Below are positions 41,529 to 62,346 of a stretch of DNA of 64,000 nucleotides, in pieces; within the stretch, counting starts at the first letter, position 1, and the number at the start of each line of letters is the position of its first letter. Source of the DNA: an uncultured Acidobacteriaceae bacterium (GTDB lineage Bacteria; Acidobacteriota; Terriglobia; Terriglobales; Acidobacteriaceae); the NCBI GenBank assembly GCA_963837915.1, contig CAWIPZ010000046.1, positions 469-64,468 on the forward strand. The letters run 5' to 3'. Below the pieces are notes generated by a model, which searched no databases, had not been told where the DNA came from, and saw only the letters and a program-made list of their open reading frames with translations. Both the position numbers and the translations under genes were made by a program.

Positions 41529-42924
41529 AAGCGTGCATCCCAGGCAGCAAGTAAGTCACGCCGAAGAAAGTGAACATCACTACGGCAAACCCAAGGATGG
41601 CGAAGTAAGCAGCGCGCCGGCCTCGCCATCCACGAGTGATACGCATGTGCAGATAGCCCGCGTACACCAACCAGGTAATTGCAGCCCAAGTCTCTTTCGG
41701 ATCCCAGCTCCAATAGGAGCCCCAGGTGCGATTGGCCCAGTAGGCGCCCGCCGCGATCATCAGGGTGAGTAAAGGAAATGCGATCGCGATGGTCTTGTAG
41801 GTAATGCGGTCCAGTTCGTCCGCACTCGGCAACATGCGCTCTAAGTCTTCACGCCTCCAGAGCAGTAACAGGTACAACAGCGATACAAAGATTGCGCCCA
41901 CAAGGCCGGAGAGAATAAACGGGCTGGCGGCCAGAGTGGTGGGGAATAAACCGTCGGCATCGAGAGAAGCGTAACGGCCATCGCGGGCTCGGAGCACAAA
42001 GAACACTACCGCCAGTATCTGCAACAGGATGCTCAGGAACACGGCTCGATTGGCCATGTCGAGCAGCTCCTCATTGTGAGTCTTGTGCCAGATGAGATAA
42101 AGAACAAGCGGTGCCGCTACTGCCGCCATCACCAGAAGGAGCAACCAGCCGAGATCAGGAATCACAACGAAGAGGCGTACGCCACGGGACAGGAAGGCTT
42201 CCGACTTTTCTTCGGGGTTCCACGCAACGACGCTCAGCCCTCCCCATTTTTCAAAGCGGGTCAGGACGCCCACATACGTTGCGACCGTAAACAAGCTGGT
42301 CGCCGCCAGAAAGGTTTCAGTTTTCATCTTGTCCTGGATCAAGAACATCATGGCCAGGGCGAAACTGAGTGCGCATGCCGCATAGGCGAGCATGGCTAGT
42401 GTGACGTGGACGTGCAGCCAGGTCGATTGCAGCGCCGGCACCAGAGGACGAACCTCAGTCCGCAACAACTGCATCAGCACAACACCTACGATCGCGACCG
42501 GCATGGTCACTGTCCCGATTACCTTCACTCCATATTTCTTCTCGGCAACCAGCGTGAGCACGGCCAGAGTCCATACGAACATGAGCAGCATTTCGTAAAT
42601 GCTTGCGAAAGGCGGATGCCCAGCCTCGTACCAGCGGCGCGCTACCGCGCCAGTGTTGGCTAGCAACCCCGCCCATGTGGCCAGCGAGGCGAAGCGAATA
42701 TAAGAAGGAGTGCCAGTGATGCCGAATCCAAGATAGAGCGTTCCCGCGCCTGCATAGAAAATAAGCGCGGCGTAGAGGAGGTTGGAATCGTTGAGCAAGT
42801 TGCCGCTCTTGACCACGTTCAGAAACGCCATGAACAGCAGGAAGGCAACCCCCAATCCCACCATTACAACCAGCGTGTTGCTTGAAGCTCTCGGTTGCCG
42901 TTCGATTGTTGCGACGCGTGTCAT
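41521..42924 (-). CDS. ccsA: Cytochrome c biogenesis protein CcsA/ResC (System II)
   Basis: Polytopic membrane protein with the WWD-type motif [26 protein letters not shown]. Confidence 0.88.
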
Positions 42925-42942: not shown

Positions 42943-44388
42943 TTAGTTTCCGGCGAGCGCTGGAACAGGCGCCTTGGGGCCCGTCTTTGCCGAAACTTTG
43001 AGTTCCGATTCGATTTGTTCAACCAGTTCGCGAAAACGCTGCTCAAACGCATCTTTATTTTTGTTGGCTGTTCCGCCGATCCAAAGCATCAAACGGCCCC
43101 TGACATCGCGCACCGGCACGGCCCACACCCGCATGTGGACGAAATAGAAGACGAAGGCCAGACCAAAGCCCATGACGATCACGCCCGCCCAAACCCCCCA
43201 CTGGCCAGGTTCGTGCGAAACCTCCAGTCCGGTGAAGTAGGCCATCTCCACGTCCTTGCCTTCGAATGCATATGGCGACGACGCGTTCTGCTCGTGGCCT
43301 GGGATCGGAGGCAGCCAGACATTCACGGCCTGACTCGACTTCCTGGATTCCACTATCAGATGGGCCGCCGGATTTTCCAACTGGTGAGAGCGAGCGTAAA
43401 CCTGGCCATCACTTACTACATAGTCGGGTATGAACTCGGCGAGGCGAACAGTTGTGTCGGCATCCAGTGGAAGAGTTTCATCTAAACCAATCGTGATGTC
43501 CTTGGGATCTCGGCCGTCGCGTGGAGTGGCGGTTAGCACCAGTTTGTCGAGCTTTCCCGTGTTCCCGTAGCTCGCCTGATAGAAGCGTATGCCGCCATAA
43601 ACCAAAGGATCGTTGACCACGATCTGCTTCCGCAGGATTACGTGCCCATCCTTCAGCACCGCCAGATCGGACCACCACCGTTTGGGAGTGCCATCGGCAT
43701 AGTTTTCCCGGCCAGCGCCGTCACAGCGGACGGCAAACGGCAGGTTGCGCGTAACGCCCTTCTGCGGTTCCACCTGGCTCGACTGTTGTCCGCGGGTGAG
43801 TGTGACGAAGGCGCGCCAGCCGTACAGCGCATCGACGATGCCTCCGAGAAAAATGAGAAGCAGGCTTGCATGCACGATATAAACTGCCATTTCAGAAAGG
43901 CGGTTACGCTCGCCGAAAAGAGAGAAGCTGTTCTCGCGCACAATCCGATCCGGTCTGAATCCTGCCTTTTGAAACACTCGCTCCGCGATGCTCAAGGTCG
44001 CTTCTTCATCTTCAATCGGAATCAGCACATGGCCGGGCAGTGCTTTTCGGAATGCCTCGTCAGGGCTTTTATAGGGACGGGAGAAATACCTCCACGCGTT
44101 GGGAAAGCGCTGGACCGAGGCGGCAATGATGCTGAGACTCACCAGGCTCAGCAGCAAAACGAACCACCAGGCATGGAAAACGTCGGTTAGTCCCAATCCA
44201 TCGAGCAGGCGCAGCACCTGTGGCGAATAGGCCCGCTGCATCTCATCGACATCCGTCGCGGGACGCTGCAGAATCACTGTCCCAGCTGCCGAGAGGATTA
44301 CGACTAGAATGAGCAGCATGACTCCGGTCTTAATCGCAGCCAGAGTTTGCCAGATTTTGCGAGGTATGGAATCGACGGTCGCAGCCAT
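42943..44388 (-). CDS. ccsB: Cytochrome c biogenesis protein CcsB/ResB (System II)
   Basis: ResB-like N-terminus IWQTLAAIKTGVMLLILVVILSAAGTVILQRP, a large soluble loop, and C-terminal TM helices. Immediately upstream of ccsA. Confidence 0.85.
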   Translation of the reverse strand: MAATVDSIPRKIWQTLAAIKTGVMLLILVVILSAAGTVILQRPATDVDEMQRAYSPQVLRLLDGLGLTDVFHAWWFVLLLSLVSLSIIAASVQRFPNAWRYFSRPYKSPDEAFRKALPGHVLIPIEDEEATLSIAERVFQKAGFRPDRIVRENSFSLFGERNRLSEMAVYIVHASLLLIFLGGIVDALYGWRAFVTLTRGQQSSQVEPQKGVTRNLPFAVRCDGAGRENYADGTPKRWWSDLAVLKDGHVILRKQIVVNDPLVYGGIRFYQASYGNTGKLDKLVLTATPRDGRDPKDITIGLDETLPLDADTTVRLAEFIPDYVVSDGQVYARSHQLENPAAHLIVESRKSSQAVNVWLPPIPGHEQNASSPYAFEGKDVEMAYFTGLEVSHEPGQWGVWAGVIVMGFGLAFVFYFVHMRVWAVPVRDVRGRLMLWIGGTANKNKDAFEQRFRELVEQIESELKVSAKTGPKAPVPALAGN

Positions 44389-44502
44389 AACTTTCCTCTT
44401 CCCGCACTGAAGAAAGCACGTTTCGCGCCATTATTGGAGGTTCGGCGAAGTTGTTGAAATTCCACGTCGTAAGGAGAATCGGCTTGATCCGCAAAAGCGC
44501 GT

Positions 44503-44518
44503 TGTGAGCCATATCACA
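44503..44518. promoter_or_regulatory. Perfect CRP-type box TGTGA-GCCATA-TCACA
   Basis: Exact consensus in the divergent region between the ccsB operon and the 16-haem cytochrome operon. Confidence 0.55.
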
Positions 44519-44764: not shown

Positions 44765-46315
44765 ATGCGTGCACAAGCAACCGAGCAGGGAGTGGTGGGC
44801 GTGACGCTGAAATCATTCCAATTGAATCCCAGAGCGACTCACAGGCTAAGCGTACTGGTGTGCTTCCTGGTTGTCGTCGTATTTGCTGCTCCCGCCTTCG
44901 CTGCGAAGCATCCGGTTCCACTGGATCCGAAAGCCGATCCCGCCACCTGCCTCACCTGCCATGAAAATAAAACCAAAGGCAAGGCGGTCCATTCCGCGAT
45001 TGCCATGGGCTGCCTGAGCTGCCATGAAATCCGGGTCAATAGAGATAACACTTACGTAAAGCTGATTACCGCGACGCCTTACAAGCTCTGCCTCACCTGC
45101 CACGCTGATAAAGACTCCACGCAGATCAAGGGTAAAGTGCACCCGCCGGCAGTTCGCGATTGCCTGACCTGCCACGATCCGCACACTTCCGACAATAAGA
45201 ATCAATTGTTGAAGCTGACTTCGGGCGACAAGAAGGATAATCTCTGCCTCACCTGCCACACGCAGGGGACGAATGTGCCGGATGGTGGCAGCCGCCACGC
45301 TGCACTGGACATGGGCTGCGACACCTGCCACACCGTGCACAAGACGGGGGACCGGGGCAAGCGCGAATTTGATTTTCACCTGACCAGGGATGCTCCCGCG
45401 CTGTGCGTCGACTGTCACGATGTGAAGGAAAGCAGTCTGGTGAAGGCGCACCAGGGACAGCCCTTCGCCACAGCTGACTGCCTGACCTGCCACGATCCGC
45501 ACCAGTCGAAAGCACCCAAGCTGATGCAGGCGTTCTTGCATCCTCCGTTTGAGTCGAAGTCGTGCGATACCTGCCACCAGCCTGCCAAGGATGGCAAAGT
45601 TGTGCTGACCATGGCCAGCCCGAAGGAGATATGTGTTACCTGCCACGCCGACAAGGCTGAGCAGATCGAGAAGGCGAAGGTGCCGCATCCGGGTGCGGCG
45701 GGCGATTGTACCGATTGCCACAACCCGCACGCCGGACGCTCGCCGGCCTTCCCCAAGCCGGACGCGGTTTCGGTTTGCCTCGGTTGTCATAGTGATCAAG
45801 CGGAGGAGGGCAAGAAACAGCACGTGCACCAGCCCGCCTTCGAGCAGGGCTGCGCCACCTGCCATGATCCGCATGGCAACGATAACCAACATTTGCTGCG
45901 GGCGAACGCGCCCAATCCACTGTGCCTTGAGTGCCACGCTCCCGATGCCAAGCCGCAGAAGCTGGAAGGCGAACACCTGGTAACCATCTTCGACGGCAAG
46001 GTGAAATTGCCGGAAAACTACTTTGCCAAGGTGCCGGTTCTGCCGCTGGAGTATGGCCTAGGCCATCCCGTAGAACGTCACCCGGTTTCGGATCTGGTGG
46101 ATCCCAAGGATCGGACCCACGTTCTGATCCCCTTGAATTGCCTGACCTGCCATCAGCCGCACGCTTCGGCGAAGCCCGATCTACTGGTGAAAGATCAGGC
46201 CAACAATATGGAGTTTTGCCACAGCTGCCACAAGGGTCTGATTGGTCCCAAACAACAGCTTGGTCCGGCGCAAGGAAACGCTGCGCCAGGAATTCCTCCA
46301 AAAGGAGCGCAATAG
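44765..46315 (+). CDS. Periplasmic multihaem c-type cytochrome with 16 CxxCH motifs
   Basis: Signal peptide (LSVLVCFLVVVVFAAPAFA). I counted 16 CxxCH motifs (CLTCH x6, CLSCH, CDTCH x2, CVDCH, CVTCH, CTDCH, CLGCH, CATCH, CLECH, CHSCH), arranged in c7/c3-like repeats. Confidence 0.9.
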   Translation: MRAQATEQGVVGVTLKSFQLNPRATHRLSVLVCFLVVVVFAAPAFAAKHPVPLDPKADPATCLTCHENKTKGKAVHSAIAMGCLSCHEIRVNRDNTYVKLITATPYKLCLTCHADKDSTQIKGKVHPPAVRDCLTCHDPHTSDNKNQLLKLTSGDKKDNLCLTCHTQGTNVPDGGSRHAALDMGCDTCHTVHKTGDRGKREFDFHLTRDAPALCVDCHDVKESSLVKAHQGQPFATADCLTCHDPHQSKAPKLMQAFLHPPFESKSCDTCHQPAKDGKVVLTMASPKEICVTCHADKAEQIEKAKVPHPGAAGDCTDCHNPHAGRSPAFPKPDAVSVCLGCHSDQAEEGKKQHVHQPAFEQGCATCHDPHGNDNQHLLRANAPNPLCLECHAPDAKPQKLEGEHLVTIFDGKVKLPENYFAKVPVLPLEYGLGHPVERHPVSDLVDPKDRTHVLIPLNCLTCHQPHASAKPDLLVKDQANNMEFCHSCHKGLIGPKQQLGPAQGNAAPGIPPKGAQ

Positions 46316-46317
46316 AT

Positions 46318-47580
46318 ATGGCTGAGACGATGCAAAAGTGTGCGCGCAGCGGATTATTTGCGACTGCGGTGCTGACCCTGCTGGCCGCCATTTGGGTTTC
46401 CGCGGCTTTCGCCGATCAAAAGAAAGAGACTACGCCCGCAAAGCCGCCGGAGCCGCCGAAGATCGATATTTCCAACATCGTCTGGCCGCAACCGCCCGCC
46501 ATCGCGCGGCTCAGGTATCTGGACTATTTTTCCGCTCAGAAGAAGGATCCAGAGACTGCAAAGCCGGAGGTCAAGAAGAAGTCGTGGATGGACCGCATGG
46601 CCGGCGTCAGTCCCGATGATGCCGCCAAGAAAGCCGGCACCAAGCCCCGTTACCAACTCGGCACACCCTACGGGCTCGCGGTCGACTCCAAGGGATTGTT
46701 GTACGTGGCCGATACCAAGGTGGGAGCAGTTTTTATCTTCAACCCCGAGAGCAAAGACACCGGATTTATCAAGCATGGTGTGGACGCCAAGTTCGGCCGC
46801 ATTTTCGGCCTGGTCATCGATGATGGCGACCGGCTTTTCGTCTCCGACGGCCAGTACAATCACGTGCTGGTGTTCAATCCCGAACATAAACTCGAAGGCC
46901 AGTTCGGCGAAGGCGTGATGAACGATCCGGCGGGGCTGGCCATCGACGAAGAGAACCGTTTTCTTTATGTGGCGAATACGGGAACCGACCAGGTGCTGGT
47001 CTACGATGCCGACACATTCAAGCTGCTGCACAAGATTGGGACCGCGGGCAAGAACCGCACTCTGACCGATCCCGGTGATTTTGCCGCGCCGACCAACGTG
47101 GCCGTGGATAAAGACGGCAATCTTTACGTTACCGACACGCTGAACGACCGGGTTGAAGTGTTTGACGCTGAGGGTGCATTCATCCGCACGTTCGGCAAGA
47201 ACGGCGATGGGCCGGGAGAGTTCACGCGTCCCAAGGGCATTGCCATCGATTGCGACGGCCATGTGTGGGTCGCGGACGCCAACTTGAACCGGCTGCAGGT
47301 ATTCACGCCGGAGGGTGATTTGCGTCTGATCGTGGGTGGATTCGGCTGGCTACCCGGGCAATTCCAGGCGCTGGCGGGGTTGACCATCGATAAGCAGAAC
47401 CGGGTGTTCACCAGCGAGCAATATCTCGGCCGAGTGCAGATGTTTCGCTACGTCACCAACGCTGAAGCCCAGGTCGAATACGATCGCCGCCTAGCCGAGG
47501 TGGCGAAGAGGGCGGCGCAGAAGCCGGCACCGGCGCCGGTAGGCGAGAAGAAGCCTGTGGACAATGCGCCGCAGCGTTGA
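46318..47580 (+). CDS. Secreted six-bladed NHL-repeat beta-propeller protein
   Basis: Signal peptide (LFATAVLTLLAAIWVSAAFA) and six repeats of the form P.G.A.D..G.LYV.D....RV.VF. Its ATG lies 3 nt after the cytochrome stop, with an AAAGGAG RBS. Confidence 0.85.
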   Translation: MAETMQKCARSGLFATAVLTLLAAIWVSAAFADQKKETTPAKPPEPPKIDISNIVWPQPPAIARLRYLDYFSAQKKDPETAKPEVKKKSWMDRMAGVSPDDAAKKAGTKPRYQLGTPYGLAVDSKGLLYVADTKVGAVFIFNPESKDTGFIKHGVDAKFGRIFGLVIDDGDRLFVSDGQYNHVLVFNPEHKLEGQFGEGVMNDPAGLAIDEENRFLYVANTGTDQVLVYDADTFKLLHKIGTAGKNRTLTDPGDFAAPTNVAVDKDGNLYVTDTLNDRVEVFDAEGAFIRTFGKNGDGPGEFTRPKGIAIDCDGHVWVADANLNRLQVFTPEGDLRLIVGGFGWLPGQFQALAGLTIDKQNRVFTSEQYLGRVQMFRYVTNAEAQVEYDRRLAEVAKRAAQKPAPAPVGEKKPVDNAPQR

Positions 47581-47986
47581 ACCCAACGCCCGAGACGCCA
47601 AAGCCGACGCCACCAGTAGCACCAGCAATGCCGACAACCGTCAAGAGGCCCTAAGCAACGAGTACCGAGACAAAGACGCTCGGTATCCCGCCTAATCTCG
47701 CCCAAACGCCCCTAGAATAAGTGCGCCAGATCGCCCCTCTAACCCAGCCGGATGTTGCGTTATTTCACCTGTCCGGGTGTGGGAGAAGGCTCATCCCAGC
47801 CCTACGCTGCCGCCATTGAAATTTGCAAAACGTTTCGCATGATGCGGAACTCATTATGTGGCAATAGTTTACGGTCCATGGAAAGGACTAACGCGCTCCA
47901 ATGATTAGGTGATGGCCGTGCACATACAGGGGTGAGTAAGAAGTACAACTCGAACAAAGGTCTTTATTCTGAGGAGGTTTTAGACC

Positions 47987-48997
47987 ATGAAACGCGTAAT
48001 GCTAGTAGTCCTCTTCGCCCTGCTGGCAGTAGCCATGGCATCGGCGCAGACATTCGTACCCACCACAGACGTGTTGGGTGCACACAATAACGGAGGACGC
48101 GGCTGCGCGGGCTGCCACGCTCCCCACAGCGGCGGACGCGGCAACGGTGGCGATCTGGTCGCCGGCAGCGGTGTCACCAGCCTGGGCGGCGCAGAAGGCG
48201 ATTATCACCTCTGGGGCCAGGACGTATCGTTGATCACCCAGGAAACCCTGCAATTCGGCGGCGGCTATGACAACGGCGGCGCCGGCTACACGGTCAACTT
48301 TGTGGCCGGACAGTGGACAGCCTCGTCCCTGCCCGCGATCTCGGGCATTGCTTCCTGCCTGAGCTGCCACGACGGGAACGTCTCGAAGGGCGCCATGATG
48401 ATGAATCAGTCCTACGAGCAAGCGGCTGGCCTGCTGCCGAACGGCAACGGCAAATATGCCACCACAGGTCCGCTGTATGGCAGCACGCCCATTCCGACCC
48501 TGCTTGGCAACGACGGTGGCACGCCTGGCGATTACCTGAACGATCACCCGGTGGGACCGAATGCGAACTACAACGGCCTGAGCTATCCTCAGCCGCTGTC
48601 CTACTACGGTCTGACGTACGTCGATTCGACCGGCTTCCTCGGGCCCGCCCCCGTCTGGACGGCGACCGGAACGTATGCGACGTTCCTGCAGAACTACGGC
48701 GCGCCCGCCATCAACGGGATGGTGATCGACGCCACCAACCAGGTGCCTTATGTGGTTTGCACCACTTGCCACAACCAGCACCAGATGAACGTCTACAACG
48801 CTCCCGCCACTGGGTTGGGCGCGATTAATGGCGCGGCAGGAACCTATGCCACGTACTTCTTCGTCAACGCTCCTTACAACCCGGGCGCGAAGTGGACACC
48901 GACGGCTGCGCCTTCCACCACGCAGTTCTGCCGGCAGTGCCACTTCGGCGTCGCCAATGAAGCTTTTGGCGTCACCGGCGTGACCACTGCGTATTAG
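47987..48997 (+). CDS. Secreted tetrahaem c-type cytochrome, G/N/T/Y-rich with very few charged residues
   Basis: Signal peptide MKRVMLVVLFALLAVAMASA. Four CxxCH motifs (CAGCH, CLSCH, CTTCH, CRQCH). GAGGAGG RBS and its own terminator. Confidence 0.85.
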   Translation: MKRVMLVVLFALLAVAMASAQTFVPTTDVLGAHNNGGRGCAGCHAPHSGGRGNGGDLVAGSGVTSLGGAEGDYHLWGQDVSLITQETLQFGGGYDNGGAGYTVNFVAGQWTASSLPAISGIASCLSCHDGNVSKGAMMMNQSYEQAAGLLPNGNGKYATTGPLYGSTPIPTLLGNDGGTPGDYLNDHPVGPNANYNGLSYPQPLSYYGLTYVDSTGFLGPAPVWTATGTYATFLQNYGAPAINGMVIDATNQVPYVVCTTCHNQHQMNVYNAPATGLGAINGAAGTYATYFFVNAPYNPGAKWTPTAAPSTTQFCRQCHFGVANEAFGVTGVTTAY

Positions 48998-49010
48998 TTG
49001 GTTGTTTTGC

Positions 49011-49045
49011 CTGAGGGGAGAAAGGATCTCTCCCCTCAGATTTTA
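49011..49045 (+). terminator. Rho-independent terminator
   Basis: 11-bp stem ctgaggggaga / tctcccctcag, 7-nt loop, followed by atttt. Confidence 0.7.
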
Positions 49046-49192
49046 AGACTTGGTCATTTGGTTAGGGCAGTTTCAGTGAAACCAGAAACCAGGAACTAGC
49101 GACCGGAAACTGGAAACTGCAGTCACCAAATCACCAAGTGAATGGATTGGGGAGAGGAGCCGCTGAAGTTCTGCCCCGAAAGTGAGAACTAA

Positions 49193-50269
49193 ATGAAAAG
49201 CAAGAACTACAAACTGCAGATTCTGACCTTGGCCCTGGCAGCACTGGCGATCTCTCCGGCGCTGGCGCAGGTCGCTTCCCACGAACCGACAGCACTGAAG
49301 CCGATGGTAGCGTCGAGCGCCGCGCCCGCAGGCGCGCCGACAGCAAGCGCGACCCTGAGCCCGGTTCAACCGGTCACCAACAGGCCAGTGGTGCGCATTA
49401 ATGGCACCGAACTGACCGACCGCGACTTATTGCGCGAGATGCTGATCATCTTTCCTTATGCGCGCCAGCACAACGGCTTTCCGAAGGCTGAGGAACCGAA
49501 GATCCGGATGGGCGCACTGAAGATGATTGAGTTCGAGGAGTTGGTGTACCAGGAAGCGGAGCGCAAAGGGCTGACGGTGCCCCCTGCGACGCTGCAGAAG
49601 GCGCAAGCCGAGTTCCGTGCCCAGTTTCCCAACCAGGAAGCGTTCGATGGATTTTTGAAGACGGAAATGCAGGGTTCAAAGCTGGTGTTGCGCAAACAAA
49701 TCAGGCGCTCGCTGCTGGTCGACCAATTCCTGAAGGCGGAAGTGACGGACAAAGCAAAAGTAACGCTGGCGGAAACGCGGGCTTATTACGACAAGAATCC
49801 GGACGTCTTTCGCTATAGCGAGAACTTCAGCATCCAGACCATTTCGATTCTGCCCTCGGATAAAGCCAGCGATGAAGTGAAGAAGCAAGCCCGCCAAGCG
49901 GCGGAAGAAGCGTGCCAGAAGGCCAAGGCGACCAAGAGCTACCAAGAGTTTGGCTTGCTGGCAGAAAGAGTTTCGGAAGATGACTTCCACGTGAACATGG
50001 GCGACCACAAAACGGTCGACCGCGACAAGTTGCCGCCGGAGATCGTGAAGGCGGCGCTGGCCATGCAGCCGGGACAAACGAGTGATCTGCTGCAACTGGG
50101 CAACTTCTACACCTGCTTCCGGCTGAACGCGCATATGCCCGCCGGCAAGCGGACGTTTGCGCAGGTGAAAGATGCTCTGCGCCAAAGCTTGGAGAGAGAA
50201 AAATACGAGCGCTTGCGCGGGGGGCTAGACCAGAAGCTGCGGCAGACCGCGAAGGTGGAAGAACTCTAA
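49193..50269 (+). CDS. Periplasmic SurA/PpiD-like peptidyl-prolyl isomerase (parvulin type) chaperone
   Basis: Signal peptide (LQILTLALAALAISPALA), a SurA-N-like region, and a PpiC-type domain (FSIQTISILPS...MQPGQTSDLLQLGNFYTCFRL). Confidence 0.75.
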   Translation: MKSKNYKLQILTLALAALAISPALAQVASHEPTALKPMVASSAAPAGAPTASATLSPVQPVTNRPVVRINGTELTDRDLLREMLIIFPYARQHNGFPKAEEPKIRMGALKMIEFEELVYQEAERKGLTVPPATLQKAQAEFRAQFPNQEAFDGFLKTEMQGSKLVLRKQIRRSLLVDQFLKAEVTDKAKVTLAETRAYYDKNPDVFRYSENFSIQTISILPSDKASDEVKKQARQAAEEACQKAKATKSYQEFGLLAERVSEDDFHVNMGDHKTVDRDKLPPEIVKAALAMQPGQTSDLLQLGNFYTCFRLNAHMPAGKRTFAQVKDALRQSLEREKYERLRGGLDQKLRQTAKVEEL

Positions 50270-50281
50270 GGGGTTGACGCT

Positions 50282-52141
50282 GTGCCGTGGAGAATGAGAG
50301 ATCGACGGTTGGTCGGGCTGGCGCTGATGGTGACGCTGGTGTTGGGGACGCTGGCGCTCTCACCGGTGGCGGCGGCGCAGGTAGCGTTGGGCGACCTGCA
50401 TGCTACCGCGAGCGGGCAACTGACGTCGTTGTATAACGACAGTTTCGGCAATCTGGGCACTACGGATGCTCACTCCTTGGGCTTCGCGGGCCGGGGCGTA
50501 ATCAGCGGCGATTACTATAACCCCAATTTCCTCTCTTTCACACTGCTCCCTTATTACGGCCGGTCGCAGGACAACTCTGATATGCAGTCGATTAGTGACG
50601 CCAGCGGTTACACGGGGACACTCAATATTTTCAAGGGCAGCCACTTTCCCGGGGTTGTAACCTTCGACCAGACTTGGAACAGCACGGGAACATTCGGGGT
50701 TCCGGATGTGAGCGGACTGGCCACGAAGATTAACAGCCACGGATTGAACGTGGTGTGGAGCGCACTGTTGCCCAACCTGCCAACGCTTTCGGTTGGCTAC
50801 GGACAGACCGCGGGCACGAGTTCCTTGTTGGGCAGCGACGAGTCGACGGCATCTTCAACCAAGAATTTCAACGTCGGAAGCACATACAGCATCGGCAGTT
50901 TCTACTTGACTGGCGGCTTCATTCATTTGGACACGGATGTAGATATCAGCGGGCTCGAAGACGGGGAGGGGGACACGGCGCGCAGCTCGTCGAACCAATA
51001 CCGCCTCACCGGCCAGGGCCGGATCCCCTACCGAACCAGCAGCGCGTCGTTGAGCCTCAGCCGGATCAGTTACAGCAACGATGACACCCTCGGGGGCACG
51101 AATTATGGCACCACCGACACCGTCAACGGGAATGTAAACCTGGCATTCCCCAGGGCGCCGGTACAGGTGACCGCGACCTATACTGATAACCTTCTGGGCA
51201 GCATCGAGCAGCAAATGGTGAGCAACGGACAGGCGCCACTGGCGGGCTTAAACAGTCCCGAATCGCGCTCCGTCTCGGTGGAGGCCAGCACCTTTGTGAA
51301 TATATTGCCCCGGACGCTGGTGGGTGCTTACGTGTCGCGCACGCAGCAATACTTCGATGGTCAAAATATTGGGGTGACGCAGCTGGGCGTGAATGTGAGC
51401 TACAACTTCCTGCACACGCTGAAGGGGTTGATGTTTTACGGGGGGCTGGTGGAAAGCGCGACCCAGCAAGGCAATACTCGGCTGGGATTTATCGGCAACG
51501 TCACTTACAACAAGTACCTAGGCAAGTGGGAAATCAACAGCTTCGTGCGCTACGACCAGGACGTTGAAACACTGCTGGTGATGTACACGACTTCTACCTT
51601 GAATTATGGAGGCACACTAAAGCGCCAGCTTCCTCATGACGTGCGCTGGGTGGCCGTAGCCAACCTGGTCCGCAGCGTTTTTGAACAACAGGCCGGGAAT
51701 GCCAGCCACGGCGAGAGCTTCACCACCATGCTGATCTGGAGCCGGGCTTCGGTCTCGGGCATTTATACGAAATCAAACGGGACTTCGATTCTGACCGCGA
51801 CTGGGCTGGCGCCGTCGCCGGTGCCGGGATCGGTGCTGGGTGCGGGCAATTCGATTCTCTACAACGGCAGCAGTTACGGGGCTAACGCGAGCGTTTTTCC
51901 GGTGAAGCACATGTCCATCAGCACGGCGTGGTCGAAGTCGCTGAGCAATACCACGAGCCCATCGCTGCTTTCCAATAGCGGAAACACCAACTACTACGGT
52001 CTGGCCACGTATGAGTACAGAAAGCTGCTGTTCCAGGCGGGAGTAACAAAGTTCAACCAGAGCATCAGCACTTCCGGCACCCCGCCCACTATGTTAACTT
52101 CCTACTCATTCGGGATTTCCAGATGGTTCAAAGGATTCTAG
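50282..52141 (+). CDS. Outer-membrane beta-barrel (porin-like) protein
   Basis: Signal peptide (LVGLALMVTLVLGTLALSPVAAA), G/S/T/N/Y-rich sequence with an alternating pattern throughout, and a C-terminus ending in ...SRWFKGF with terminal Phe. Confidence 0.7.
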   Translation: MPWRMRDRRLVGLALMVTLVLGTLALSPVAAAQVALGDLHATASGQLTSLYNDSFGNLGTTDAHSLGFAGRGVISGDYYNPNFLSFTLLPYYGRSQDNSDMQSISDASGYTGTLNIFKGSHFPGVVTFDQTWNSTGTFGVPDVSGLATKINSHGLNVVWSALLPNLPTLSVGYGQTAGTSSLLGSDESTASSTKNFNVGSTYSIGSFYLTGGFIHLDTDVDISGLEDGEGDTARSSSNQYRLTGQGRIPYRTSSASLSLSRISYSNDDTLGGTNYGTTDTVNGNVNLAFPRAPVQVTATYTDNLLGSIEQQMVSNGQAPLAGLNSPESRSVSVEASTFVNILPRTLVGAYVSRTQQYFDGQNIGVTQLGVNVSYNFLHTLKGLMFYGGLVESATQQGNTRLGFIGNVTYNKYLGKWEINSFVRYDQDVETLLVMYTTSTLNYGGTLKRQLPHDVRWVAVANLVRSVFEQQAGNASHGESFTTMLIWSRASVSGIYTKSNGTSILTATGLAPSPVPGSVLGAGNSILYNGSSYGANASVFPVKHMSISTAWSKSLSNTTSPSLLSNSGNTNYYGLATYEYRKLLFQAGVTKFNQSISTSGTPPTMLTSYSFGISRWFKGF

Positions 52142-53238
52142 CCCGGAACTGGAAAGCAAACCTGAGCCGATGGGTGATTGCCTGCTGCTTCCTGCTGCTC
52201 AGCACTCCTTTTCTGGTCACCCCTGCGTGGGCCGCCAAGAAAGCCAATCCTGCGGGCGTACCGGGCCCCCCCGACTTGCTGCTGGAAGGCGGGCGCAAAC
52301 TGACCTTCGAAGGCAGCTTCGGCTCCGAAAAAGAAGTGCTGGGAAAGCAGAAATTCTGGACCAGGGTTTTCAATGCAGTAGCCGGAGAACCGGAATACCG
52401 GATAGTGGTGCGTCCGTATAGCATCGCAGTCGATTCCCATGGACGAGCCATCGTAACCGACCCCGGCGCGGCCGGGGTGCACATCTTCGACTTCGCGCAC
52501 CACAAATACAAGTTCATCGAGCGCAGGGAAAAGGAAAAAGATGCGATGCTGGCGCCACAATGCGTGGCCCTGGATGCGCAAGATAACATTTATGTCACTG
52601 ACTCCCGGTCGGGTAAGATCTTCGTCTTTGACCCGAGCGGCAAATACCAGCGCGCTATCGGCAGTTTGAAAGGCGGCGAAGGTTACTTCAAACGGCCCAC
52701 GGGGATCGCCGTGGATTCCGCGGCGCAGCGCATTTATGTGACCGATACCCTGCGCGACAAGATCTACGTGCTGGATATGCAGGGACAGGTACTGCAAACC
52801 ATCGGCAAGCACGGCAGCGGCAGCGGCGAATTCTACTACCCAACCGAACTGCACCTCGACAACAACAACCTGCTGGTGGTGGACGCGATGAACTTCCGCG
52901 TGCAGTGGTTTGACCGCAATGGCAATGCGGAGGGATCGATGGGCCAGATTGGCGACTCTCCTGGCCAGATGTTCCGCCCGAAGGGCGTAGCGGTGGATTC
53001 AGAAGATCACTTGTACATTGTGGACGGGCTTTCGGGTATGGTGCAGGTTTTCGATCGCGAAGGCCGCCTGTTGTACTTTTTTGGAAAAAGAGGAGTAGGA
53101 CTCGGCGAGTTCCAGTTGCCCACGGGTTTGTTCATCGACCACGACGACCGCGTGTTTGTTGTGGATTCTTTCAATCGGCGCGTGCAGGTATTTCACTATC
53201 ACGGACTCGCGAAGCCGGCGCGGGGAGCGACCCGGTGA
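52123..53238 (+). CDS. Secreted six-bladed NHL-repeat beta-propeller protein (paralogue of 46318..47580)
   Basis: Signal peptide (VIACCFLLLSTPFLVTPAWA) and six NHL repeats (e.g. RPTGIAVDSAAQRIYVTDTLRDKIYVLD). Overlaps the barrel gene by 19 nt. Confidence 0.85.
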   Translation: MVQRILARNWKANLSRWVIACCFLLLSTPFLVTPAWAAKKANPAGVPGPPDLLLEGGRKLTFEGSFGSEKEVLGKQKFWTRVFNAVAGEPEYRIVVRPYSIAVDSHGRAIVTDPGAAGVHIFDFAHHKYKFIERREKEKDAMLAPQCVALDAQDNIYVTDSRSGKIFVFDPSGKYQRAIGSLKGGEGYFKRPTGIAVDSAAQRIYVTDTLRDKIYVLDMQGQVLQTIGKHGSGSGEFYYPTELHLDNNNLLVVDAMNFRVQWFDRNGNAEGSMGQIGDSPGQMFRPKGVAVDSEDHLYIVDGLSGMVQVFDREGRLLYFFGKRGVGLGEFQLPTGLFIDHDDRVFVVDSFNRRVQVFHYHGLAKPARGATR

Positions 53239-55274
53239 AGAGCCTCGCGATTGTCGGCGCGTTGCTTTTCGCCATGGCACCTGTTCTTCTGGGGCAGACG
53301 CCGCAGGAGGACGTGCTAGGCATTCACAATCTGGGACCGGGCAGCCAGTCGCCGGTGACCGGGGCACTGCCCGCCTGCCAGTTCTGCCATGCTCCGCACT
53401 CCGGCCTCAACAGCACCAGCCTTCCTAACCTGCCGTTGTGGAGCCAGACGCTCTCTACTGAATCGAATTACACGCTCTACACTAGCCCGACCTTGGTGAA
53501 TACAGAACAGGAGCCTACGCTGGGCTCGGCCAGCAACCTCTGCCTTAGCTGTCATGATGGCACCGTCGCCCCCGGAACGAACGTACCTTATATCGGCCTC
53601 AAGATGAGCGGCTCGATGAACAGCCAGGATTTATTCATCGGCACGCTGCAGGGTATCCACCCGTTTAATTTCAAGCTCCCGCTGAATTGTTCGAACGACA
53701 ACCTGCTGTCGAGTCTTTGCAGCGGCGGCACGGGGAACCCGGCTGTGCCCTTGGTGAACGGCAACGTGCAGTGCAACAGCTGTCATAATCCGCACGCGCA
53801 GTTTATCGATCCAGTGCAAGGGGATTTTCTGGTGATGAACAACGCGAACTCGGCACTGTGCCTGTCCTGCCACGTGAGCCAGCCCTCCGACATTAGCGCG
53901 ATCCGCGTGCGAACGGCGAATACAGCTACAGCGCCTGCCGATGCTGGCACAGGTACAGGGATCAGCCGCTCTACGGGCAGCCAATACAATCCCTTCACTG
54001 CCTGGCGCGAGAGCATTCATGCGACGGCCGCCCACAAACTATCCAAGAACGCCAAGGTGGGACCGTACAGCACGGTGAATCAGAACGCCTGCCTCTCGTG
54101 CCACACCTCCCACAATGCTCCGGGCGGGGCGCAGTTGCTAGGTGGACCGATTCCAGCAATTCCAAACATGGACGCGGCTACGCAGAACTGCATTACGTGC
54201 CACAACGGCGGCACTAACCTTTCCCCGGTAATCCCCAATGTTTACGCCGAGTTTGCTAAGGTAGGCCATCCTTTTCCAGCAGGAAGCAACCGGCACAGCC
54301 AGCAGGAAAGCCTGGTGCTCAATAACGACCGGCACGCCACCTGCGTCGATTGCCACAACCCGCACGCCTCGCGACAGACTGGTTCCTTTGCGTCGACTGC
54401 AATTCGTCCCTCACAGAATGGCACAATTGGGGTCAGCGCGACGGATGGCACCGCTGAGGTGAATCCTGCGGCCGATCAATATGAGACTTGTCTGCGTTGT
54501 CACGGAACGAGCACGGGCAAGCGGGTTCTGGCCGTTTACGGCTATGCGCCGGTACGTGCGACGACCGGCGGCGACCCGTTAAACCTTCTGCCGCAGTTCG
54601 GGATTGCGGCGAGGTCGAGTCACCCGGTGATGCATGAGAGTAAGAGTGGGCTACCACAGCCCAGCCTACTCAAGTACATGTGGAATCTGGATGGCCGCAC
54701 CCAGGGGCGGCCGATCAGCGCGCGCATTCTTTGCACGGACTGCCACAATAGCGACGATAATCGGGAATTTGGCGGCACCGGACCCAACGGACCACACGGT
54801 TCGCAGTTCTCGCACATTCTGGAACGGCGTTACGAGTTCAGCCAGGTAGCGCCGGGCCTTCCGCCAGCTGCTGGTCCGGGAAGCACTATTCTGAATCTTC
54901 TTCCCCCGATTCTCGATCCCGGTGCCGGTGGACCTTACTCCTTGTGCGCCAAGTGTCACGACCTGAATGATATTGTTTCCAACGCCAGCTTCACCAAGCA
55001 CGCACTCCACATCAACGCGGGATTCTCTTGCTCGGTGTGTCACACGGCTCATGGTATGGCCGCAAATGCATCGAATCTCTCAGGCGAACGCATTGTCAAC
55101 TTCGATTTAAAGGTTGTGGCTGAGAACGGCACTTCGAGTTATTTACGCTCTCCTATTTTCTACAATCGCGGCACTAATACCTGTACCCTCACCTGCCACA
55201 ACATGAGCCACAACGCTGACGGTACGGTGACGCCGGGTGGTAGCGCCAAAGCGCCCGTGGCAGGTAAACGTTGA
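53235..55274 (+). CDS. Secreted multihaem c-type cytochrome with 11 CxxCH motifs plus one C-terminal CxxxCH
   Basis: Signal peptide MKSLAIVGALLFAMAPVLLG. Motifs: CQFCH, CLSCH x3, CNSCH, CITCH, CVDCH, CLRCH, CTDCH, CAKCH, CSVCH, and CTLTCH at 55182-55199. ATGA-type 4-nt overlap with the NHL gene. Confidence 0.88.
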   Translation: MKSLAIVGALLFAMAPVLLGQTPQEDVLGIHNLGPGSQSPVTGALPACQFCHAPHSGLNSTSLPNLPLWSQTLSTESNYTLYTSPTLVNTEQEPTLGSASNLCLSCHDGTVAPGTNVPYIGLKMSGSMNSQDLFIGTLQGIHPFNFKLPLNCSNDNLLSSLCSGGTGNPAVPLVNGNVQCNSCHNPHAQFIDPVQGDFLVMNNANSALCLSCHVSQPSDISAIRVRTANTATAPADAGTGTGISRSTGSQYNPFTAWRESIHATAAHKLSKNAKVGPYSTVNQNACLSCHTSHNAPGGAQLLGGPIPAIPNMDAATQNCITCHNGGTNLSPVIPNVYAEFAKVGHPFPAGSNRHSQQESLVLNNDRHATCVDCHNPHASRQTGSFASTAIRPSQNGTIGVSATDGTAEVNPAADQYETCLRCHGTSTGKRVLAVYGYAPVRATTGGDPLNLLPQFGIAARSSHPVMHESKSGLPQPSLLKYMWNLDGRTQGRPISARILCTDCHNSDDNREFGGTGPNGPHGSQFSHILERRYEFSQVAPGLPPAAGPGSTILNLLPPILDPGAGGPYSLCAKCHDLNDIVSNASFTKHALHINAGFSCSVCHTAHGMAANASNLSGERIVNFDLKVVAENGTSSYLRSPIFYNRGTNTCTLTCHNMSHNADGTVTPGGSAKAPVAGKR

Positions 55275-55567
55275 AGTGAATGGGGTTCCTCGGCGGAGTG
55301 GAGCTACCACCGAGGTACTCGCCGTCCAACCAGGACGGAAGACAAATCACCGCAGGGGCAAAACGCGCCCGCAGTGAGGAGAAAAACCCATTCCGCCCGC
55401 TCCCATTTGAGACCAGTTCACAGCGCATTTCATAAGTTACTGAAATCAGAGGCGTAATCCTCCAAGGCATCTGCATTTAGGATTTGGACGCTCTGGTGCA
55501 TTGGCAGTTGGACGAGCCTTTCGCACCGAACAATTCGGTGCGAAGACGGCGGACGAGGAGGGAGCAT

Positions 55568-55972
55568 ATGGAAGGGCAACGGCAGCAGAGAGTATTGATC
55601 GTTGACAACGATGAGCGCGTCTTGCGCGTCGTCGATGGATTCCTGGCGAATGCCGGTTTTGAAACGAGCACTGCCTCGGATGGAAACTTAGCACTCGATG
55701 TTCTAAAGTCGGAAGAATGTGATCTCGTGCTTGTGGCAGATCACCTTTCTGATTTTTTCCTCGACGGCTTCCTTAAGGCCTTACAGCAGTTTTCCATGCG
55801 GCCGGCGGTGATTGTGATGCAGTCCGAACCACCCAGATCGTGGGATGTGGGACCGTTCAGATCCCTCGGTGCAAGCGGACCGGTAAACAAATTCCGCCCA
55901 TGCGAGGTTCTGGGGGCGGCTAATGAGGTGCTGGCAGCTAGCCGAGCCGCGAGAATTGAATCCGTCAGCTAA
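55568..55972 (+). CDS. Stand-alone CheY-like receiver protein
   Basis: RVLIVDNDERVL...CDLVLVADHLSD...AVIVMQSE. GGAGGGAG RBS before the ATG at 55568. Confidence 0.7.
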   Translation: MEGQRQQRVLIVDNDERVLRVVDGFLANAGFETSTASDGNLALDVLKSEECDLVLVADHLSDFFLDGFLKALQQFSMRPAVIVMQSEPPRSWDVGPFRSLGASGPVNKFRPCEVLGAANEVLAASRAARIESVS

Positions 55973-56073: not shown

Positions 56074-56787
56074 ATGGTCGAAGAATCGAGGACACCGGCG
56101 GCCTCCAGGCTGGGCTGGCAGCCGAGACAGTTGGCCGTGATGTGCGTCGTGTGCCTCGCGACAGGGGGCGTGGCGGGCTACTTATTGCGAGGTTCGGCTC
56201 CCGCTCCGGTCCAGGCACCTGAGGCCAGGGCAGTGGCACCTGCAACTCCAACGCAGACTACAGGTGAATCTGCCAGTCAAATACAAGCGCAGCAGATGCC
56301 ACACAAAATGCCTACTTTGGACGACATGAAACGGATGGCGGACACGAAGGCTGCGCCGCTGCTGGCAAAATTGAACTCCGACCCAGAGAACCCCCAACTG
56401 CAGAACCAGATCGGTCTAATCTACAAGGGCGCTCATCAATTCAAGGAGGCCGCCGGATACTTTGAAAGATCGCTGCAGTATGATCCCAAGAACATCGGCG
56501 TGCGGGCTGACTACGCCTCTTGTTTGTATTACACCGGGGATGTGGACGGAGCGCTCGCGCAACTCGACAAATCGTTAGCTTACAATCCGAAACATGCTGG
56601 CACGCTGATGAACATAGGCATCATCAAGTGGCGAGGTAAGAATGACGTCGATGGTGCAGTGGCGGCATGGGAGAAGCTGCTGCAATACCATCCCGACTTT
56701 CCGCAAAAAGCCGTGGTCCAGCACATGATCACCCAGGCTAAACAAACGAAGACCGCAAAGACTATCGGCGAGGGACAAAAGGGGTAG
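56074..56787 (+). CDS. Membrane-anchored TPR-repeat protein (paralogue of 35137..35796)
   Basis: TM helix (LAVMCVVCLATGGVAGYLL) followed by TPR repeats. Shares blocks with the paralogue, e.g. YYTGDVDGALAQLDKSLAYNPKHAGTLMNIGIIKWRGK versus [38 protein letters not shown]. Confidence 0.7.
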   Translation: MVEESRTPAASRLGWQPRQLAVMCVVCLATGGVAGYLLRGSAPAPVQAPEARAVAPATPTQTTGESASQIQAQQMPHKMPTLDDMKRMADTKAAPLLAKLNSDPENPQLQNQIGLIYKGAHQFKEAAGYFERSLQYDPKNIGVRADYASCLYYTGDVDGALAQLDKSLAYNPKHAGTLMNIGIIKWRGKNDVDGAVAAWEKLLQYHPDFPQKAVVQHMITQAKQTKTAKTIGEGQKG

Positions 56788-56795
56788 CCCACCAT

Positions 56796-57824
56796 TTACA
56801 TTGCTAGCGGTCGCCCTCGGCTCTGCGGCGCCGGACAACAGTTCTCTGCGCATGTATCGGGTCGCGGCCCAAGCGATCCCACCGCTCGCCGCTCCCACCC
56901 CGGATTCATCCGCTCCAGAATCAGTTCGCGAATCATGTCAATGAATTTCGGATGCAAACCCGCGGTTCCCGCCCGCGTCATGGGCAGGCCCAGCGAATGG
57001 CATACCTGTCGAGCTTCCACGTCCAGGTCGTACAACACTTCCATGTGATCGGAAATAAAGCTGATCGGCGCCAGCACTACCGCCGACGCCAGATCCCTTG
57101 CCTTCACCTCACGCAGGTAATCGAGAATATCTGGCCCCAACCATGGCTGTCCCGGAGCGCCGCTGCGGCTTTGATATACCAATGCATCGTTCTTCTTCGC
57201 AAGCGCCAGTGAAGCAAGCATTCGCACTTCCTCCAGTTGCTTCACATAATCACTCGTGTTGGCCATGGCAAGCGGAATACTATGAGCCGTATAAATTACC
57301 TGCACATTTCTCTGCGCGTCCGCTGGAATGGCCCGCAGGGCATCTCGTACCCGTTCCACAGTGGCCTCGACGAATGCCGGATGGTTGAAGAATGCACGCA
57401 ACTTGTCCACTTCAGGAGCGCCCGGCCCAACTTCGCGTTGTGCCCGCGCAATGTCCTCGCGATACTGCCGGCATCCTGAGTATGAGCTGTAAGCCGAAGT
57501 CACGAAGCCCAACGCCCGCCGAATGCCATCCTGTTTCATTCTTCGCAAAGTCTCAGGCAGCAGGGGATGCCAGTTGCGGTTTCCCCAATAGATTGGCAGG
57601 TTGGGGCCATTTCGCTTCAACTCAGCTTCCAGGGCGGAGATCAGTTCTCGCGTTTGCTGGTTAATCGGGCTCTTGCCCTCGAAATGGTAGTAGTGCTCGG
57701 CTACTGCGAGCATGCGTTCGCGCGGAATATTCCGTCCGCGCAGCACATTCTCAAGAAACGGAATCACCTCTTCACGAGATTCCGGTCCGCCGAAAGAAAC
57801 AATCAGAACGGCATCGTAATTCAT
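56796..57824 (-). CDS. hemH: Ferrochelatase
   Basis: MNYDAVLIVSFGGPE...IYTAHSIPL...SFISDHMEVLYDLD are typical HemH blocks. Confidence 0.9.
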   Translation of the reverse strand: MNYDAVLIVSFGGPESREEVIPFLENVLRGRNIPRERMLAVAEHYYHFEGKSPINQQTRELISALEAELKRNGPNLPIYWGNRNWHPLLPETLRRMKQDGIRRALGFVTSAYSSYSGCRQYREDIARAQREVGPGAPEVDKLRAFFNHPAFVEATVERVRDALRAIPADAQRNVQVIYTAHSIPLAMANTSDYVKQLEEVRMLASLALAKKNDALVYQSRSGAPGQPWLGPDILDYLREVKARDLASAVVLAPISFISDHMEVLYDLDVEARQVCHSLGLPMTRAGTAGLHPKFIDMIRELILERMNPGWERRAVGSLGPRPDTCAENCCPAPQSRGRPLAM

Positions 57825-61399: not shown

Positions 61400-61581
61400 C
61401 ATCAGTGTGGGAAAACACCCATTAAACATTACTCATAGCCGCCCGCGAGGAGCGGTCCTGTTCTTCCAAGGCGAAGTAACCCGTTTAGTTTGTTTTGCTT
61501 GGCGCTTCGCGGGCGAAACGTAACATGTTGGAAGCGATTGGTCCGGGACTTGCCAAAGTAAGCCTGTAAACGGAGGCACTC

Positions 61582-62283: not shown

Positions 62284-62346
62284 AGGTATCACGGCGTAGA
62301 GGAAGCTGCTCGATGAGGGCCGATCCCCCACCCGGTTTGATCCCTT

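Follow-up and report, generated by a model that had tools for sequence, protein, structure and literature searches.

Gene clusters in which a large outer-membrane beta-barrel stands beside NHL beta-propellers and multihaem cytochromes have been described from three bacterial groups. The uetABCDEFGHIJ cluster of Ca. Tenderia electrophaga (Tenderiales) runs in the order tetrahaem cytochrome, peptidyl-prolyl isomerase (PPIase), 28-strand barrel, NHL, NHL, 11-haem cytochrome, ccsA, ccsB and TPR gene (bioRxiv 10.1101/2022.05.06.490989). For Desulfuromonadia, the parts of the omcE clusters have been published; five phyla are listed in that study, Acidobacteriota not among them, and the Geobacter-type omcE operons are stated to contain no candidate for a tip or a base (Petersen et al., bioRxiv 10.1101/2025.10.22.684050). 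The third system, EET1, is a porin-NHL-CytC core of 49 Terriglobales and UBA7540 metagenome-assembled genomes (MAGs). According to the available text of that preprint, the core is transcribed throughout deep peat profiles, its AlphaFold 3 model compares with PDB entry 7tfs at a TM-score of 0.70, and its porin compares with 6r2q at 0.48 (Fiorito et al., bioRxiv 10.64898/2026.05.27.727921). Here we describe a cluster of seven genes within a 64,000-nucleotide stretch of DNA from an uncultured Acidobacteriaceae bacterium (contig CAWIPZ010000046.1), referred to below as the window. The genes encode a 16-haem cytochrome (A16), a propeller (NHL1), a tetrahaem cytochrome (C4), a PPIase, an outer-membrane barrel, a second propeller (NHL2) and a 12-haem cytochrome (G12). 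The locus is very probably an outer-membrane electron-transfer system of the OmcE/Uet/EET1 type, and an outer-membrane electron conduit of that type, which we consider likely, explains the evidence best.

As far as EET1 is described in the available text, its core corresponds to the barrel, NHL2 and G12, matched by gene order, taxon, fold and OmcE matches. An MtrB-like porin, an NHL protein with a type-I signal and an extracellular OmcE-like cytochrome adjoin each other in the same order in both cases, which is the arrangement that defines EET1 in Terriglobales and UBA7540, and both EET1 and the loci compared here are found in MAGs from SPRUCE and Stordalen. EET1 was published as a three-gene core, the available text making no mention of C4, the PPIase, A16, NHL1, ccsBA or the regulatory sites, and its cytochrome was counted with 13 haem motifs under relaxed patterns, whereas G12 is counted here with 12. 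An earlier note made from this sequence had called the locus an uncharacterised variant of known conduits; that description no longer holds, as the core has been published as EET1 and sister clusters have been published for two other phyla.

Layout and conservation of the seven-gene unit

The seven genes lie on the plus strand (Table 1). Their haem motifs amount to 16 CxxCH in A16, 4 CxxCH in C4 and 11 CxxCH plus one CxxxCH in G12. A gap of 12 nucleotides (nt) separates the PPIase and barrel genes, and the NHL2 gene shares 19 nt with the barrel gene and 4 nt with the G12 gene. All seven proteins are exported, each translation beginning with a type-I-like signal peptide, and no lipobox was found in any of the seven families when 62 to 75 orthologues per family were checked (65 for NHL1 and 74 for NHL2). 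A Pfam scan of the cluster identified two NHL/DUF5128 propellers and a SurA-N/parvulin PPIase, and no trihaem c7 or cupredoxin domain. The earlier note had already read the gene order, coordinates and haem counts of 16, 4 and 12 in this way, together with the signal peptides lacking a lipobox, the gap and the two overlaps, and our recount of open reading frames (ORFs), motifs and coordinates agrees with it on each point.

The long GTG-started ORF at 45931-47580 was rejected as the NHL1 gene: for 129 codons from its start it runs over A16, and no signal peptide is encoded there. This GTG sits 385 nt inside the A16 gene in another frame and is an artefact of ORF listing. The NHL1 start is likely the in-frame ATG at 46318, 3 nt past the A16 stop, which is followed by a signal peptide.

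Relatives of the barrel were scanned for with one genome per species. A relative is encoded in 386 species genomes, and the best 79 loci of these 386 genomes were taken into the comparisons. These best loci are nearly all from Acidobacteriota, and the barrel homologues are named Candidatus Sulfotelmatobacter or Terriglobales in those sources that name them; by these names, the bacterium of the window is assigned to Candidatus Sulfotelmatobacter (Acidobacteriota). The order A16, NHL1, C4, PPIase, barrel, NHL2, G12 was kept in every examined locus with enough flank, the PPIase gene being syntenic throughout, and ccsB, ccsA and the histidine kinase gene lie upstream in most such loci. Haem counts were also stable, with 16 in 62 of 62 proteins for A16, 4 in 72 of 76 for C4 and 12 in 72 of 76 for G12, and the two gene overlaps were invariant across relatives. 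Overall, the seven genes and ccsBA are inherited as one unit, and the conserved unit newly defined here consists of the seven genes plus ccsBA and the sensor pair. The earlier note had left room for the cluster not being conserved as a unit, which the order kept in all sufficiently long loci clearly answers; its proposal that the propellers and the chaperone are integral parts is borne out by their co-inheritance with the cluster in related loci.

In distant loci, the barrel and C4 diverge fastest (median identities of 36% and 45%), and NHL2, A16 and ccsA slowest (65%, 68% and 82%). Surface exposure of the barrel and C4 would be expected to give such fast divergence. Full syntenic clusters were also observed in two MAGs labelled Candidatus Binatia (L016) and Candidatus Dormiibacterota (L074), with barrel identities of 62% and 35%, respectively; mis-binning or lateral transfer could account for both.

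Table 1. Positions of the cluster genes, putative regulatory sites and neighbouring genes in the window.
Feature	Position	Strand	Basis
A16, 16-haem MtrA/DmsE-like periplasmic cytochrome	44765-46315	+	16 CxxCH; match to PDB 6r2q chain A
NHL1, six-bladed propeller with signal peptide, no lipobox	46318-47580	+	Pfam NHL 1.5e-27, DUF5128
C4, diverged enlarged OmcE-family tetrahaem cytochrome	47987-48997	+	4 CxxCH and 4 invariant His
PPIase/chaperone, SurA-N and parvulin	49193-50269	+	Pfam Rotamase_2 4.7e-15, SurA_N_3 2.2e-6
Outer-membrane beta-barrel, 619 aa, about 28-30 predicted strands	50282-52141	+	AlphaFold2, Foldseek, C-terminal Phe
NHL2, propeller overlapping both neighbours	52123-53238	+	Pfam DUF5128 1.6e-25, NHL 3.8e-22
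G12, 12-haem cytochrome, N-terminal OmcE module and 8-haem extension	53235-55274	+	Profile, hidden Markov model, Pfam
OmcE module of G12 (residues 31-214)	53325-53876	+	
CRP/FNR-type palindrome TGTGAGCCATATCACA	44503-44518		Divergent ccsB/A16 promoter region
Sigma-54-type -24/-12 element TGGCGCGAAACGTGCT	44415-44430	-	About 27 nt before ccsB start
Sigma-70-like promoter match TTGAAA-16-CATGAT, weak	47816-47843	+	Ahead of C4
Terminator/attenuator hairpin after C4, 11 bp, 7-nt loop, then ATTTT	49011-49044	+	-21.5 kcal/mol
Second CRP-type box TGTGA-N6-TCACA, TGTGATCCACGTCACA	31286-31301		Upstream of the PFOR gene
Pyruvate:ferredoxin oxidoreductase (PFOR)	27604-31278	-	
Sigma-54-dependent response regulator	38842-40305	-	Response_reg/Sigma54_activat/HTH_8
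Histidine kinase, downstream of ccsBA in the same direction	40374-41528	-	HAMP/HisKA/HATPase
ccsA, System II cytochrome c maturation	41521-42924	-	Pfam Cytochrom_C_asm 3.6e-49
resB/ccsB, divergent from the cluster	42943-44388	-	Pfam ResB 3e-82
TPR protein like CcmH/NrfG	56074-56787	+	Pfam; TPR gene also found after the cluster in many loci
Ferrochelatase	56796-57824	-	Pfam
CbcL-like fusion of 7-haem cytochrome c and membrane cytochrome b	62347-63990	-	Ni_hydr_CYTB and multihaem families, 7 CxxCH

OmcE modules in C4 and G12, and the partner proteins

The relation of G12 to OmcE was evident when families instead of single sequences were compared; single-sequence PDB searches with C4, G12 and the barrel gave nothing useful, and OmcE was reached by family profiles alone. 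A profile of G12 orthologues matched the OmcE structure 7tfs at E = 3.9e-22, covering residues 15-231 of 232, and PDB entry 9yuq at 3e-18. A hidden Markov model (HMM) built from 117 OmcE homologues, searched against all ORFs of the window, matched G12 at E = 6e-22 over almost the whole model, hitting residues 31-214 of the protein, with positions 27-212 covered. The first four haem motifs of G12 are spaced 52/77/30, against 53/84/26 in OmcE, and the ligands H31, C48-H52, H55, C103-H107, H142, C180-H184, H187 and C209-H213 are all invariant. Unlike in the free-standing OmcE subunit, 465 further residues follow the module, and this extension matches Pfam family PF22113 (MtrC domain II/IV) with 40.2 bits at a cut-off of 30. 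Because of the HMM and profile matches and the OmcE-like motif spacing, G12 is identified as a canonical full OmcE module fused to eight more haems. What is new for EET1 is that its published 'OmcE-like' cytochrome is such a fusion. The HMM also matched A16, but this was rejected as non-specific, since the similarity is confined to the 30-residue paired-CXXCH end of the model and occurs there repeatedly.

C4 represents a second, diverged OmcE-family protein. The first C4 family profile matched 9yuq, the OmcE nanowire of Desulfuromonas soudanensis (Petersen et al., bioRxiv 10.1101/2025.10.22.684050), at E = 0.002. With a broader profile from an exhaustive search of representatives, the match to 9yuq improved to E = 2e-9, and G. 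sulfurreducens OmcE (7tfs) was matched at E = 0.005. Alignment by hhalign with 30 OmcE homologues gave a probability of 99.5%, over the first half of C4. Its N-terminal 135 residues also resemble G12 (E = 6e-8; hhalign 99.6% against the G12 N-terminus), and the eight haem-ligand His line up, together with the four CxxCH motifs, in one and the same order in all three of C4, G12 and OmcE (H, CxxCHxxH, CxxCH, H, CxxCHxxH, CxxCH). The C4 ligands follow each other as H33, C40-H44, H47, C124-H128, H187, C258-H262, H265 and C315-H319, all of them invariant or nearly so. These comparisons identify C4, at the level of sequence, as a diverged and enlarged paralogue within the OmcE family. The last residues of C4 (320-336, positions 48947-48997) form a tail that is conserved in the family and ends in Thr-Ala-Phe/Tyr, while OmcE stops 1-2 residues after haem 4; the tail may serve as an interface or in sorting.

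Features of the C4 gene are consistent with a protein made in quantity. Two or three tandem C4 copies, 47-50% identical to C4 of the window, lie upstream of the PPIase gene in three related loci (L030, L035 and L040). A hairpin of -20 kcal/mol or lower occurs within 100 nt after C4 in 48 of 62 loci, compared with 9 of 61 random control windows; the hairpin of the window fails the T-run rule of the terminator scan and was accepted on its folding energy and its conservation against the control. The spacer before C4 measures 406 nt, and the median NHL1-to-C4 spacer in relatives is 232 nt. As seen, the terminator that the earlier note had assigned to C4 is supported, whereas the promoter region it had proposed amounts to one weak sigma-70-like match, and such matches are no more numerous in the region than in shuffled sequence. 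Tandem copies and a conserved terminator fit a major subunit or a protein made in excess. The cluster thus holds, as a further new observation, a second, free OmcE-family gene with the hallmarks of a major subunit, and C4 is a candidate for an abundant or polymerising subunit. That C4 polymerises into a filament, as OmcE does with a His of the neighbouring subunit ligating one haem, is a tentative proposal, which we hold with less than even confidence. Both OmcE modules had gone unseen in the earlier note, and they change the role to be expected of the outer cytochromes.

A16 is predicted to be a haem wire of the MtrA/DmsE type. It carries paired-CXXCH and DmsE-type signatures in Pfam and NCBIfam, scored 184.9 bits against the NCBIfam DmsE family TIGR03508, just below the cut-off of 192.2, and is 31% identical to the 19-haem cytochrome of the Desulfuromonadia omcE cluster. 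It also matched PDB 6r2q chain A at E = 2.4e-20, over one 115-residue stretch. This chain (333 aa) is labelled 'Cystathionine beta-synthase' in the sequence table; because entry 6r2q is the Mtr complex, we take the chain to be MtrA and the name to be a labelling error.

Both propellers are homologous to those of the omcE clusters. Along its whole length, NHL1 shares 27-30% identity with the omcE-cluster propeller lipoproteins, with E values of 1e-40 to 1e-47, and NHL2 is 28-34% identical, with E values down to 1e-49.

The 619-residue protein is predicted to be a very large outer-membrane barrel. An AlphaFold2 (AF2) model from a 38-sequence alignment was all-beta with about 29 long strands and a mean predicted local distance difference test score (pLDDT) of 71, and Foldseek against the PDB returned only large outer-membrane barrels (TonB-dependent receptors, LptD, MtrB), the best TM-score being 0.41, to MtrB chain 6r2q_B. 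The protein ends in Phe, as do 77 of 77 orthologues, so that the earlier identification of an outer-membrane beta-barrel ending in this residue is upheld by both the model and the family. The sequence has no match in Pfam, NCBIfam or the PDB, whether searched as a single sequence or as a family profile, and thus does not place the protein in the MtrB family; no sequence relatives of the barrel were found outside its own family.

Proposed electron path, alternatives and surrounding genes

In the path that we propose, electrons of the quinol pool would leave through the CbcL-like protein or a similar inner-membrane cytochrome. A16 would carry them across the periplasm, inserted in the barrel as MtrA is in MtrB, and G12, held at the surface on the barrel with the help of NHL2, would take them over. 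C4, made in excess, would extend the path, either as an OmcE-like polymer seeded on the G12 module or as a surface cytochrome that is loosely attached. Folding and assembly would fall to the PPIase and the propellers as dedicated factors, a role that has been proposed, in the available description, for OscH and OscD of the Geobacter osc cluster (PMC13194489). The CbcL-like gene, noticed earlier and confirmed here by its haem motifs and cytochrome b domain, encodes a candidate quinol-side entry or exit point, linked to the cluster by proximity only.

Several observations weigh against an assignment to the OmcE/Uet/EET1 type. The proteins of the locus and of its acidobacterial relatives are known from sequence alone. 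C4 has 336 residues against about 220 in OmcE, its motifs are spaced 79/133/58 against 53/84/26, its alignment by hhalign is confined to the first half, and it carries 17 residues past haem 4, so that it departs from the free-standing subunit of about 200-240 aa, ending 1-2 residues past haem 4, that is typical of OmcE. AF2 prediction of C4 without haems, from a 34-sequence alignment, reached a pLDDT of 47 and gave no fold-level support. The barrel has no sequence relation to MtrB, the similarity (TM 0.41) lying at the level of the fold; hhalign gave a probability of 0.3% against the omcE-cluster barrels, and a search of five such barrels with the barrel profile (hmmsearch, 14-sequence database) gave E = 0.14 or worse. 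Since no sequence relation to the omcE-cluster barrels or to MtrB was detected, this barrel and those may be analogues. A PPIase is encoded here and in none of the omcE clusters, whose propellers are lipoproteins (LAAC, LVGC, LSAC), whereas the propellers here lack a lipobox. In addition, NHL paralogues elsewhere in the acidobacterial flanks are similarly identical, so that the propellers are candidate orthologues. Finally, the Uet and Desulfovibrio ferrophilus systems have been proposed for electron uptake and not for export.

The alternative that survives best is a plain porin-cytochrome conduit with no filament, in which A16 sits in the barrel, G12 is the sole fixed surface cytochrome in the role of MtrC, and C4 acts as a monomeric tetrahaem shuttle, either soluble or weakly attached, periplasmic or extracellular. 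The MtrA-like A16, the MtrB-like fold of the barrel and the G12 score above the Pfam threshold for MtrC domain II/IV all agree with it, as do the differences of C4 from OmcE in size, spacing and C-terminus, and its four extra His could satisfy all C4 haems within one chain. OmcE-like tetrahaem proteins are moreover widespread, and not all of them are expected to polymerise (Petersen et al., bioRxiv 10.1101/2025.10.22.684050). However, both outer cytochromes have an OmcE module, for which the known structures are all filaments; C4 shows what is typical of a major structural subunit, namely a spacer of its own that holds a weak promoter match, a terminator that is conserved and a gene repeated in tandem; and a comparable dedicated PPIase and propellers have been proposed to take part in nanowire biogenesis. 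We rate this alternative as rather unlikely. The earlier note had likewise read the locus as a conduit of the porin-cytochrome type, and that reading stands with regard to the MtrA-like A16, the MtrB-like fold and the conserved locus; it does not extend to sequence kinship with MtrB, and it missed the OmcE modules.

At the opposite end, G12 might be the base of a filament, its OmcE module templating a C4 polymer while its eight further haems link to the barrel and A16, which would make the cluster a self-contained nanowire machine. Each propeller may then partner one OmcE-family protein, with the PPIase as the assembly chaperone. This is a speculative extension and, taken as a whole, improbable. 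If true, the fusion of a subunit module with conduit haems would explain both the anchoring of cytochrome nanowires and their electrical contact with the cell.

Within the conduit of the OmcE/Uet/EET1 type, we lean towards an outward flow of electrons because of the carbon-metabolism genes of the window (PFOR, alcohol and aldehyde dehydrogenases and an acetyl-CoA-synthetase-like gene), the CRP-type box TGTGATCCACGTCACA at the PFOR promoter, and the argument for organic-matter reduction made in the available text of the peat study (Fiorito et al., bioRxiv 10.64898/2026.05.27.727921). The destination would be peat organic matter, humics or Fe(III). Through the two boxes, pyruvate oxidation and the cytochrome cluster may be under a common CRP/FNR-type regulator. 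The same machinery could instead work inward, taking up electrons from reduced minerals, humics or partner cells and feeding sulfate or other respiration. Mtr-type conduits are reversible, NHL-linked outer cytochromes are expressed in D. ferrophilus under electron-donor starvation, and uet, the nearest system by gene order, has been proposed for electron uptake (bioRxiv 10.1101/2022.05.06.490989). Nevertheless, the PFOR, dehydrogenase and acetyl-CoA-synthetase-like genes point to an organotroph in need of an electron sink, a second CRP-type box lies at PFOR, the peat study argues the other way, and equivalents of the cupredoxin and trihaem proteins UetDEFG are missing from the cluster; inward flow is unlikely in our view.

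A barrel whose main task is to let C4 and G12 out, as a secretion or usher pore, with electrons leaving by another route, would agree with the porin-like secretion or anchoring role proposed for barrels of the omcE and omcS regions (Petersen et al., citing Shen et al.; bioRxiv 10.1101/2025.10.22.684050) and with a PPIase gene 12 nt upstream, as in a chaperone-usher pair, but is doubtful given that the MtrA-like A16 is co-inherited in every locus with no other conduit encoded nearby, that the overlaps of the barrel gene with NHL2 and G12 suggest a stable complex instead of a transient pore, and that secretion and conduit roles are not mutually exclusive.

An outward conduit would matter for the habitat of these bacteria. 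Northern peat holds about one third of soil carbon, as stated in the available text of the peat study (Fiorito et al., bioRxiv 10.64898/2026.05.27.727921). Respiration with solid organic matter as electron acceptor has been proposed to curb methane in peat. Uncultured Terriglobales, among them Ca. Sulfotelmatobacter, are dominant in peat, and the locus is their best candidate machinery for such respiration.

The ccsBA genes, assigned by Pfam, diverge from A16 with the perfect palindrome TGTGAGCCATATCACA between them, as the earlier note had reported. In the same spacer of 50 relatives, a CRP-type box was perfect in 22 and near-perfect in 32, with differing central bases. The sigma-54 element TGGCGCGAAACGTGCT recurs as TGGCGY-N5-GTGCT in 29 of 50 related loci; a search for sigma-54 promoters found none convincing ahead of A16 or C4, the only good one facing ccsB. 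The operon that this element heads ends in the gene of a sigma-54 activator, which suggests autoregulation of the ccsB operon.

Genes for haem supply flank the cluster: a radical-SAM/SPASM gene and a glutamyl-tRNA reductase gene (hemA) at 32351-35121, and the TPR and ferrochelatase genes at 56074-57824. Just past the cluster, an ORF of 162 aa (55484-55972, plus strand) has only a weak, partial receiver-domain match. Beside the CbcL-like gene, an ORF of 300 aa (61429-62331, minus strand) has no family match and an odd composition, and is probably not a gene.

Comparison with described systems

The PCC3 systems of Gallionellaceae were considered as a parallel and rejected. PCC3 combines a periplasmic cytochrome of 21-27 haems and an extracellular one of 10-35 haems with a porin and an inner-membrane protein, whereas the haem numbers here are 16, 4 and 12 and the cluster encodes no inner-membrane protein. 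The earlier note had ascribed PPIase and NHL companions to PCC3. This was a misattribution, as the same paper that defines PCC3 assigns the PPIase (UetB) and NHL (UetHI) companions to uet of Tenderiales.

With MtrCAB (6R2Q), the locus shares a predicted MtrA-type wire (E = 2.4e-20), the MtrB-like fold and the match to MtrC domain II/IV. It differs in having 16 haems instead of 10 in the wire, in a non-lipoprotein outer cytochrome with an OmcE module at its N-terminus, and in the additional propellers, PPIase and second outer cytochrome.

In Geobacter sulfurreducens, the osc cluster places a PPIase chaperone (OscH), channel-like proteins (OscEFG) and a beta-propeller (OscD) beside omcS (Shen et al. 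2025, as summarised in PMC13194489). Compared by the available description, the locus is similar in setting a PPIase chaperone, a channel-like protein and a beta-propeller beside the gene of a nanowire-type cytochrome; the subunit there, hexahaem OmcS, is unrelated in sequence to OmcE.

The omcE clusters are matched more closely in composition. Reference loci of this type were L080 to L087, with the layout confirmed in the six that were fetched. Here as in the references L081, L083, L084, L085 and L087, resB/ccsA adjoins the genes of an OmcE-family tetrahaem protein, a pair of NHL/DUF5128 propellers, two large cytochromes of the multihaem type and a large barrel with a C-terminal Phe, and the propellers are homologous throughout (27-34% identity over the full length, E = 1e-40 to 1e-49). 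In contrast, the gene order is rearranged here, the barrels of the omcE clusters are larger (738-785 aa against 619 aa) with no detectable sequence relation, the canonical module is fused to eight haems while the free tetrahaem protein is enlarged to 336 aa, and glycosylation genes are absent from this locus.

In gene order, the locus is closest to uet, an architectural match only: the tetrahaem UetA, the PPIase UetB, the barrel UetC, the NHL proteins UetH and UetI and the 11-haem UetJ follow one another in a comparable order, with ccsAB and an nrfG-like TPR gene adjacent. Uet is the only described system with a PPIase in the same position, between tetrahaem cytochrome and barrel. This locus lacks the trihaem c7 proteins UetDEG and the cupredoxin UetF, for which the 19-nt overlap of the barrel and NHL2 genes leaves no room; conversely, a 16-haem MtrA-like protein with its propeller is present here, and the phylum differs.

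Overall, the comparison ties uet (Tenderiales), omcE (Desulfuromonadia) and EET1 (Acidobacteriota) into one class. Its recurring unit pairs an NHL gene with an OmcE-family cytochrome gene next in line, and a large barrel and ccsBA lie close by. Every OmcE-family gene that we saw has an NHL gene immediately before it, a regularity that the earlier note had missed: NHL1 precedes C4 and NHL2 precedes G12 here, and the same pair occurs in seven Desulfuromonadia-type loci, one of which (L086) holds just that pair with no barrel. This gene pair is, as a new finding, the likely shared motif linking the three systems. With the full seven-gene unit and its regulatory sites defined, expression studies and heterologous reconstruction have a concrete target, and the G12 fusion is a testable candidate for anchoring an OmcE-type filament to a trans-outer-membrane conduit of this class.

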